This document shows, piece by piece, positions 7,150 to 7,416 of a DNA stretch of 64,000 nt. The position numbers and the translations under genes were made by a program. The stretch is from NCBI RefSeq assembly GCF_003018255.1, contig NZ_CP027440.1, one strand, 5' to 3'. Position 1 is the first letter of the stretch, and the number at the start of each line of letters is the position of its first letter. A model generated the notes under the pieces. The model ran no database searches. It had not been told where the DNA came from and saw only the letters and a program-made list of their open reading frames with translations. The stretch comes from Escherichia coli (GTDB lineage Bacteria > Pseudomonadota > Gammaproteobacteria > Enterobacterales > Enterobacteriaceae).

Positions 7150-7416
7150 GCCGAATGTAGGCCGGATAAGGCATTCACGCCGCATCCGGCAATCAACGCC
7201 GGATGCGACGCTGTCGCGTCTTATCAGGCCTACAGCCGTTGCCGAATGTAGGCCGGATAAGGCGTTTACGCCGCATCCGGCAATCAACGCCTGATGCGTC
7301 GCTGTCGCGTCTTATCAGGCCTACAGCCGTTGCCGAATGTAGGCCGGATAAGGCGTTCACGCCGCATCCGGCAACCAGCGCCTGATGCGACGCTGTCGCG
7401 TCTTATCAGGCCTACA
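7150..7416. repeat. BIME/REP array, three tandem ~91-bp units
   Basis: Three near-identical units containing GCCGGATAAGGCG..CGCCGCATCCGGC and CTGATGCGACGC..GCGTCTTATCAGGCCTAC palindromes, between yjcH and acs. Confidence 0.85.

Follow-up and report, generated by a model that had tools for sequence, protein, structure and literature searches.

The window analysed here is a stretch of 64,000 nucleotides (64 kb) from an Escherichia coli strain other than K-12; its nearest complete genomes are 99.1% identical to it over 25 kb. On its minus strand lie acs, yjcH and actP, three genes described in the literature as co-transcribed (bioRxiv 10.64898/2026.06.26.734639). The untranslated gap between acs and yjcH is 381 nt long, and most of it is occupied by a tandem array of REP palindromes. 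An earlier description of this DNA, made without database searches (the sequence-only reading), had placed such an array inside the acs-yjcH-actP operon; this placement was correct, as all three genes are on the minus strand and the array lies between acs and yjcH. The operon and its smaller features, in the order in which they are transcribed, are as follows.

7450-9408, minus strand: acs (acetyl-CoA synthetase), an open reading frame (ORF) of 652 aa, the upstream gene of the operon (ORF and RefSeq annotation)
7145-7417: the whole array, three in-register units
7112-7125, minus strand: a small hairpin, CUCCC-AUAA-GGGAG, about 45 nt 5' of yjcH (from the sequence)
7077-7087, minus strand: the yjcH Shine-Dalgarno region (UACCUCUGGAG in the mRNA), the same as in K-12
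6754-7068, minus strand: yjcH (DUF485 inner-membrane protein), the first gene past the array (ORF and RefSeq annotation)
5108-6757, minus strand: actP (acetate/glycolate:cation symporter), the last gene of the operon (ORF and RefSeq annotation)

Across about 50 Enterobacteriaceae species, the yjcH ribosome-binding site keeps the segment ACCUCUGGAGA unchanged or almost unchanged, and the rest of the gap is highly variable. The small hairpin 5' of yjcH could be what is left of a different repeat family, or else a 5'-UTR element that has been conserved. In Enterobacter, Leclercia, Lelliottia and Klebsiella, a longer hairpin (CCCUCUCCC...GGGAGAGGG) occupies the same position. When RNAalifold was applied to the 50-species alignment, in which two gap architectures are mixed, no consensus structure emerged for this element. 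At the other end of the operon, yjcF (a pentapeptide-repeat protein, EspX5 in some strains), which lies between yjcE and actP in K-12, is absent; a 78-bp spacer at 5026-5103 stands in place of about 1.6 kb that includes yjcF. This spacer carries a hairpin between A and T runs (GGTAAAAAGGTGC...GCACCTTTTTACC) that looks like a bidirectional terminator between the convergent yjcE and actP.

Tandem Repeats Finder reported a single tandem array at 7148-7428 with a period of 91, 3.1 copies, 94% matches, no indels, and a score of 497. In register, it comprises three 91-bp units with 93-95% mutual identity; relative to unit 1, unit 2 is 95% identical and unit 3 is 93% identical. The 64-kb window was searched with a Y-type REP pattern (TGCCGGATGCGGCGTRAACGCCTTATCCGGCCTAC) and a Z2-type REP pattern (GCCTGATGCGACGC-TGTC-GCGTCTTATCAGGCCTAC), each with a chance expectation of 0.00 matches in dinucleotide shuffles of the window. 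Every unit contains one Y-type and one Z2-type REP, inverted and head to head over 6-7 nt. The three units of about 91 bp with two opposed REPs that the sequence-only reading had drawn at 7150-7416 thus agree with the present coordinates within a few bases. The parts of the array are listed below.

7145-7235: unit 1
7236-7326: unit 2
7327-7417: unit 3
7157-7191, minus strand: unit 1 Y REP (TGCCGGATGCGGCGTGAATGCCTTATCCGGCCTAC), 1 mismatch, RNA hairpin of -19.5 kcal/mol, forward in the mRNA
7192-7197: head-to-head linker of unit 1 (S type), ATCAAC, no IHF consensus
7198-7233, plus strand: unit 1 Z2 REP, hairpin of -15.8 kcal/mol in the mRNA orientation; its head is a variant, the Y-like GCCGGATGCG in place of GCCTGATGCG
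7234-7247: 14-nt tail-to-tail linker between units 1 and 2, AGCCGTTGCCGAAT
7248-7282, minus strand: unit 2 Y REP, 0 mismatches, hairpin of -21.3 kcal/mol
7283-7288: head-to-head linker of unit 2 (S type), ATCAAC, no IHF consensus
7289-7324, plus strand: unit 2 Z2 REP, 1 mismatch, hairpin of -15.1 kcal/mol
7325-7338: 14-nt tail-to-tail linker between units 2 and 3, AGCCGTTGCCGAAT
7339-7373, minus strand: unit 3 Y REP, 0 mismatches, hairpin of -21.3 kcal/mol
7374-7379: head-to-head linker of unit 3 (S type), ACCAGC, no IHF consensus
7380-7415, plus strand: unit 3 Z2 REP, 0 mismatches, hairpin of -20.5 kcal/mol; the first full REP that a transcript meets past acs, with a stem that begins 38 nt beyond the stop codon
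7416-7441: a linker-like stretch with the head of a truncated fourth Y REP (AAACCGTTACCGACT + CGCATCGGGCA), at the acs-side end of the array

The truncated fourth Y REP closes the array on the acs side and accounts for the extra 0.1 in the copy number of 3.1. The same stretch is found in all alleles with at least one unit, and in a lone-Y allele an intact Y head adjoins the same AATTGTGGG flank as the truncated fourth Y does here. All six REPs are imperfect palindromes of about 35 nt with a GTAG/CTAC tail and the consensus of their type, from which each departs by 0-1 mismatch, and the array is extragenic, with no part of it reaching into acs or yjcH. Individually, the REP hairpins have predicted energies of -15.1 to -21.3 kcal/mol in the mRNA orientation, and the whole gap folds at -199.9 kcal/mol compared to -140.6 +/- 5.1 kcal/mol for shuffles (z = -11.7). 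Further Y and Z2 REP copies are present in the window at 17.9-18.2, 39.6, 45.0, and 47.5 kb, and a query containing the array had a median of at least 35 matching places per E. coli genome.

Two classes of BIME have been distinguished: BIME-1 combines Y with Z1, is single-copy, and has a long L linker that often holds an IHF site, while BIME-2 combines Y with Z2, occurs in multiple tandem copies, and has a short S linker, its copy number differing between loci and strains (PMC3333891). The acs-yjcH array is a canonical BIME-2, the type in which REPs of the E. coli family are arranged in tandem. Y (minus strand) and Z2 (plus strand) alternate three times; the REPs of a pair are joined by an S linker of 6-7 nt, with neither an L linker nor an IHF consensus; and the units are tandem, with 3.1 copies here and 1, 2, 3, or 4 units among E. 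coli genomes. It is like the BIME-2 elements of Gilson, Bachellier, and Hofnung (PMC3333891) in its alternating Y and Z2, short linker, tandem arrangement, extragenic position, high identity within the locus, and strain-variable unit number. There is no essential difference from that class; the peculiarities are the three-unit allele, where the reference strain has one unit, and the Y-like Z2 head of unit 1. BIME-1, RIP, and RIB elements (Boccard and Prentki 1993; Oppenheim et al. 1993) share with it a Y REP facing an inverted Z-type REP, but they have Z1, a long L linker with an IHF site, and typically a single copy, none of which applies to the array, where the partner REP is Z2 and not Z1. 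The IHF consensus WATCAANNNNTTR has 6 matches in the window and none in 7069-7449.

The window has a second tandem REP array at 17874-18247, between gltP (16518-17831, plus strand) and yjcO (18249-18938, minus strand), with a 113-bp unit, 3.3 copies, and 97% identity. Its unit consists of a Z-type REP, a 36-nt linker, and a GTCGGAT-type Y REP, and the linker carries the IHF consensus (AATCAAGCTATTG at 17920 and 18033).

In K-12 MG1655, exactly one unit is present at the acs-yjcH site; the flanks align perfectly and the length difference is 182 bp, or 2 x 91. To describe the alleles of the species, 5,426 complete E. coli genomes were surveyed with two queries, the locus itself and its two unique flanks alone. 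Allele length was taken from the span of the match in 118 rows drawn at even steps down the ranking, and the shares below are accordingly sample estimates and not a census. Representative alleles were then retrieved and cut into units for unit-by-unit comparison.

One unit (K-12 type): gap of 199 nt, about 68% of the sampled rows
Y, a GTCGGAT-type REP, and a truncated REP: gap of 209 nt, about 15%
ERIC-like element with a lone Y: gap of 225 nt, about 6%
Three units: gap of 381-393 nt, about 5%
Two units: gap of 291-302 nt, about 2.5%
Four units: gap of 472 nt, about 2.5%
Lone Y REP: gap of 131 nt, about 1%
Deletion alleles: rare among the sampled rows

The unit count had been expected to vary between strains, and the sampled genomes confirm this, with anything from one to four units, or just a lone Y, at the locus. 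The three-unit allele is also present in the complete genomes of JNE23-011, MS20659, clone D i2, Ec15103, and FDAARGOS_1254; these genomes are independent of one another, so the allele did not arise from an assembly error. Several alleles share unit markers, namely a GGCATTCACGCC loop in the yjcH-proximal unit and an AACCAGC linker in the acs-proximal unit, and taking the middle unit out of the three-unit allele of clone D i2 gives exactly the two-unit allele of MS1170. These comparisons of unit sequences show that the array changes length by in-register gain or loss of whole units, for which recombination or slippage between units would be the simplest cause, possibly with the help of the REP-associated transposase, a role proposed by Ton-Hoang et al. 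2012 (PMC3333891). The lone-Y allele would be either ancestral or the product of a deletion between two CGCATCCGGCAAT repeats.

Beyond E. coli, a degenerate pattern for the Acs C-terminus located 54 loci in species-representative genomes. In 50 of these, yjcH follows acs, with a gap of 77-294 nt. The lone Y form is found in E. whittamii and in the E. coli representative, and the one-unit form in E. albertii and Escherichia sp. MOD1-EC7003. Citrobacter has a REP of its own right after the acs stop codon, followed by a hairpin and then an ERIC element. No REP was seen in the acs-yjcH gap of the representative loci of Enterobacter, Klebsiella, and Raoultella, nor did this sample include a multi-unit array from any species other than E. 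coli. The ERIC allele of E. coli (about 6% of those sampled; e.g., EC2202095, positions 350-574 of retrieved locus L007) has a lone Y, a hairpin, and an ERIC-like element directly 5' of the yjcH ribosome-binding site. Its layout is similar to that of Citrobacter (three loci, among others), which suggests that it is either old or imported.

Several published observations on the operon bear on what the array may do. The sRNAs OmrA and OmrB pair at the yjcH Shine-Dalgarno region and lower actP mRNA, while acs is unaffected despite co-transcription (bioRxiv 10.64898/2026.06.26.734639). In E. coli W at a high dilution rate, acs is down about 2-fold and yjcH/actP about 4-fold. Both sets of data fit discoordinate control within the operon. 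Among the analogues, REP325 has been studied most thoroughly; it consists of six Y-Z2 units and lies within the yjdMN operon. At its chromosomal locus, it stabilises the upstream yjdM mRNA about 3-fold and cuts the downstream yjdN about 8-10-fold; the effect is partly Rho-dependent and is accompanied by a ladder of hairpin-ended RNAs (Harris et al., bioRxiv 10.64898/2026.03.23.713779). Like REP325 and naRNA1-6 (PMC4550694), the acs-yjcH array is a Y-Z2 tandem inside a co-directional operon, and the units of both match the same Rfam model. REP325 differs in its 100-bp unit, its 5.8 copies in K-12, and its linkers of 12 and 20 nt; moreover, its mRNA holds inverted Y and forward Z2, whereas that of the acs-yjcH array holds inverted Z2 and forward Y. 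The effects of REP325 are experimental, whereas the present array is known from its sequence. The malE-malF and hisJ-hisQ REPs (Newbury et al. 1987; Khemici and Carpousis 2004; cited in PMC6061677) are likewise intercistronic hairpins that lie downstream of the more highly expressed gene and act as barriers to 3' exonucleases, as envisaged here; discoordinate expression is experimental in those operons and would be expected at acs-yjcH.

The strain studied here has an orthologue of REP325 at 47482-47575, between yjdN (46984-47427) and yjdM, which is reduced to a single Z2-Y unit (Rfam naRNA4, 96 bits, minus strand). In K-12, REP325 has 5.8 units of 100 bp, and the present strain therefore lacks most of the array behind the naRNA4 and REP325 studies.

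Taken together, the best explanation, to which we assign a probability of roughly 60%, is that the hairpins of this three-unit BIME-2 protect acs mRNA and partly attenuate yjcH-actP. Transcription of the operon would start at the acs promoter and continue across the array, giving an mRNA with six REP hairpins, each of -15 to -21 kcal/mol. Such structures would stop 3'-to-5' exonucleases, such that the acs segment would outlive the yjcH-actP segment, also when yjcH-actP is repressed by OmrA/OmrB. The hairpins and the long untranslated gap would further cause a partial, partly Rho-dependent attenuation before yjcH, and three units should have a stronger effect than the single unit of K-12. On the DNA, the three Y REPs are candidate gyrase cleavage sites, and the array is not an IHF site. 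Protection of acs mRNA and partial attenuation of yjcH-actP would be the most likely role by analogy with REP325 and malE-malF; differential expression of acs versus yjcH-actP through the array, as the sequence-only reading had proposed, is thereby plausible, and we infer that the BIME may be the barrier that spares acs from the OmrA/OmrB effect. REP effects are, however, reported to be strongly context-dependent (bioRxiv 10.64898/2026.03.23.713779).

The gap was also inspected for other elements of expression control, and the results count against the proposed mechanism. There is no intrinsic terminator (a G+C-rich hairpin with a U run) on the minus strand in 7069-7449 and no internal promoter on the operon strand of the gap. 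As to a Rho loading site, the C/G ratio stays near 1 across the array and reaches no more than 1.3-1.45 over the final 100 nt ahead of yjcH; so mild a surplus of C is weak evidence and not decisive. A REP can down-regulate translation when it lies no more than 15 nt from the stop codon (Liang et al. 2015, as quoted in PMC12306157); with its first full REP stem 38 nt past the acs stop codon, the array is not a REP of this kind.

A possible alternative, to which we give clearly less weight, regards the array as a passenger: the repeat would be selfish or neutral, recombination would let its unit number drift, and expression of acs, yjcH, and actP would not be measurably affected. Very different alleles coexist at this site within E. 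coli, and related species have gaps of 77-294 nt with REPs or none. Since the locus tolerates a lone Y, another REP type, and an ERIC insertion, a tight constraint on it is disfavoured. All three BIME loci of the window also depart from their K-12 copy number, in both directions, a pattern that resembles drift: the acs-yjcH array has more copies (3 vs 1), and the gltP-yjcO array (3.3 vs 5.3) and REP325 (1 vs 5.8) have fewer. In addition, and likewise counting against the proposed mechanism, the curated lists for K-12 place no Rho-termination region and no 3' end called by Term-seq under three conditions in its one-unit gap (4285214-4285412), although repeat-derived reads may have been discarded (PMC7815308); the operon was expressed in that study, as a strong 3' end inside acs, at 4286960 (position 8997 of the window, 411 nt from the start codon), scored high. 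Against a mere passenger, an mRNA with six stable hairpins would hardly leave exonucleases unaffected, and REP325 together with a genome-wide upstream bias indicates that such arrays usually have an effect (bioRxiv 10.64898/2026.03.23.713779). Furthermore, a REP right after the acs stop codon is kept in both Escherichia and Citrobacter, even though their REP families differ.

Protection and attenuation by the array could be taken one step further, to a reading that we regard as doubtful: unit number would act as a heritable, reversible dial in which each added Y-Z2 unit raises the Acs:ActP mRNA ratio by shielding the upstream part further from exonucleases and by attenuating the downstream part more strongly, and the BIME would keep acs immune to OmrA/OmrB. 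If this were true, the natural alleles with 0.5, 1, 2, 3, and 4 units would tune acetate scavenging by E. coli lineage.

It is unlikely that the main role of the array is exerted on DNA, where it would be a strong gyrase site or topological barrier that acts independently of transcription and separates acs from yjcH-actP, with RNA effects being secondary. For the class, gyrase cleavage sites are over-represented in BIME-2, Y is cleaved more often than Z2, elements with more REPs receive more cuts, and the signal goes up when transcription is blocked (PMC6379681). REPs are also described as topological insulators in references cited within PMC3333891. Such cleavage, however, occurs in a subset of BIME-2 elements, with sucC-sucB and tldD-yhdP as the named examples (PMC6379681), and neither acs nor yjcH is mentioned in the supplement text of the Topo-seq paper (PMC6379681). 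Nor is it evident why a topological barrier should lie among genes of one co-directional operon.

Each unit of the array matches the Rfam model RF02564 (naRNA4, the Y-Z2 unit of REP325) on the plus strand with 67.9-79.8 bits, above the gathering threshold of 59.5, which raises the idea that the array is a source of naRNA4-like nucleoid-associated RNAs that bridge cruciform DNA with HU. We consider this very improbable, although anti-naRNA4 also worked in vitro, so that structure may matter more than strand (Qian et al., PMC4550694). The above-threshold matches are antisense to the operon and have no promoter-like site for the plus strand; on the mRNA (minus) strand, the units score 45.5-52.3 bits. 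Since the model matches all head-to-head REP pairs in the window, it is in effect a BIME detector. Moreover, neither REP325 nor naRNA4 had measurable nucleoid compaction in vivo, in a 2026 study that shares a senior author with the naRNA4 paper (bioRxiv 10.64898/2026.03.23.713779). A naRNA4 gene was therefore rejected here: the Rfam matches are real, but they lie on the non-transcribed strand and the model fires on all BIMEs. The remaining Rfam matches above gathering in the window are sraL (1323-1463, minus strand), SECIS_2 of fdhF (20713-20767, minus strand), and STnc630 (53236-53401, plus strand), all expected for this chromosomal region.

Finally, an IHF-binding element (RIP/RIB, BIME-1) is hardly credible here: it has in its favour the general statement that some BIMEs bind IHF (PMC3333891), and against it the linker of 6-7 nt, the Z2 partner, and the lack of any WATCAANNNNTTR match in 7069-7449, in contrast to the gltP-yjcO array of the same window with its 36-nt linker and IHF consensus. 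Of the statement in the sequence-only reading that such arrays bind IHF and gyrase, the gyrase part stands for the BIME-2 class (PMC6379681); the IHF part describes a BIME-1 property and is inapplicable, because the long linker and the IHF consensus are both absent.

BIME-2 elements, their binding of gyrase, their role as stabilisers and attenuators of mRNA, and their variation in copy number between strains are already in the literature, and the array described here is a familiar element at a locus already known, present in its less common three-unit form. For annotation, a caution follows from the Rfam matches: RF02564 fires on any head-to-head REP pair, and its matches should accordingly not be taken as sRNA genes. 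A by-product of the survey is a natural allelic series in one operon, which runs from a lone Y through one to four Y-Z2 units to another REP type and an ERIC element. Because this series coincides with an operon whose halves are discoordinately regulated (OmrA/B), the locus is convenient for measuring whether REP dosage quantitatively sets the ratio of upstream to downstream expression, a step beyond the 2026 REP325 study.
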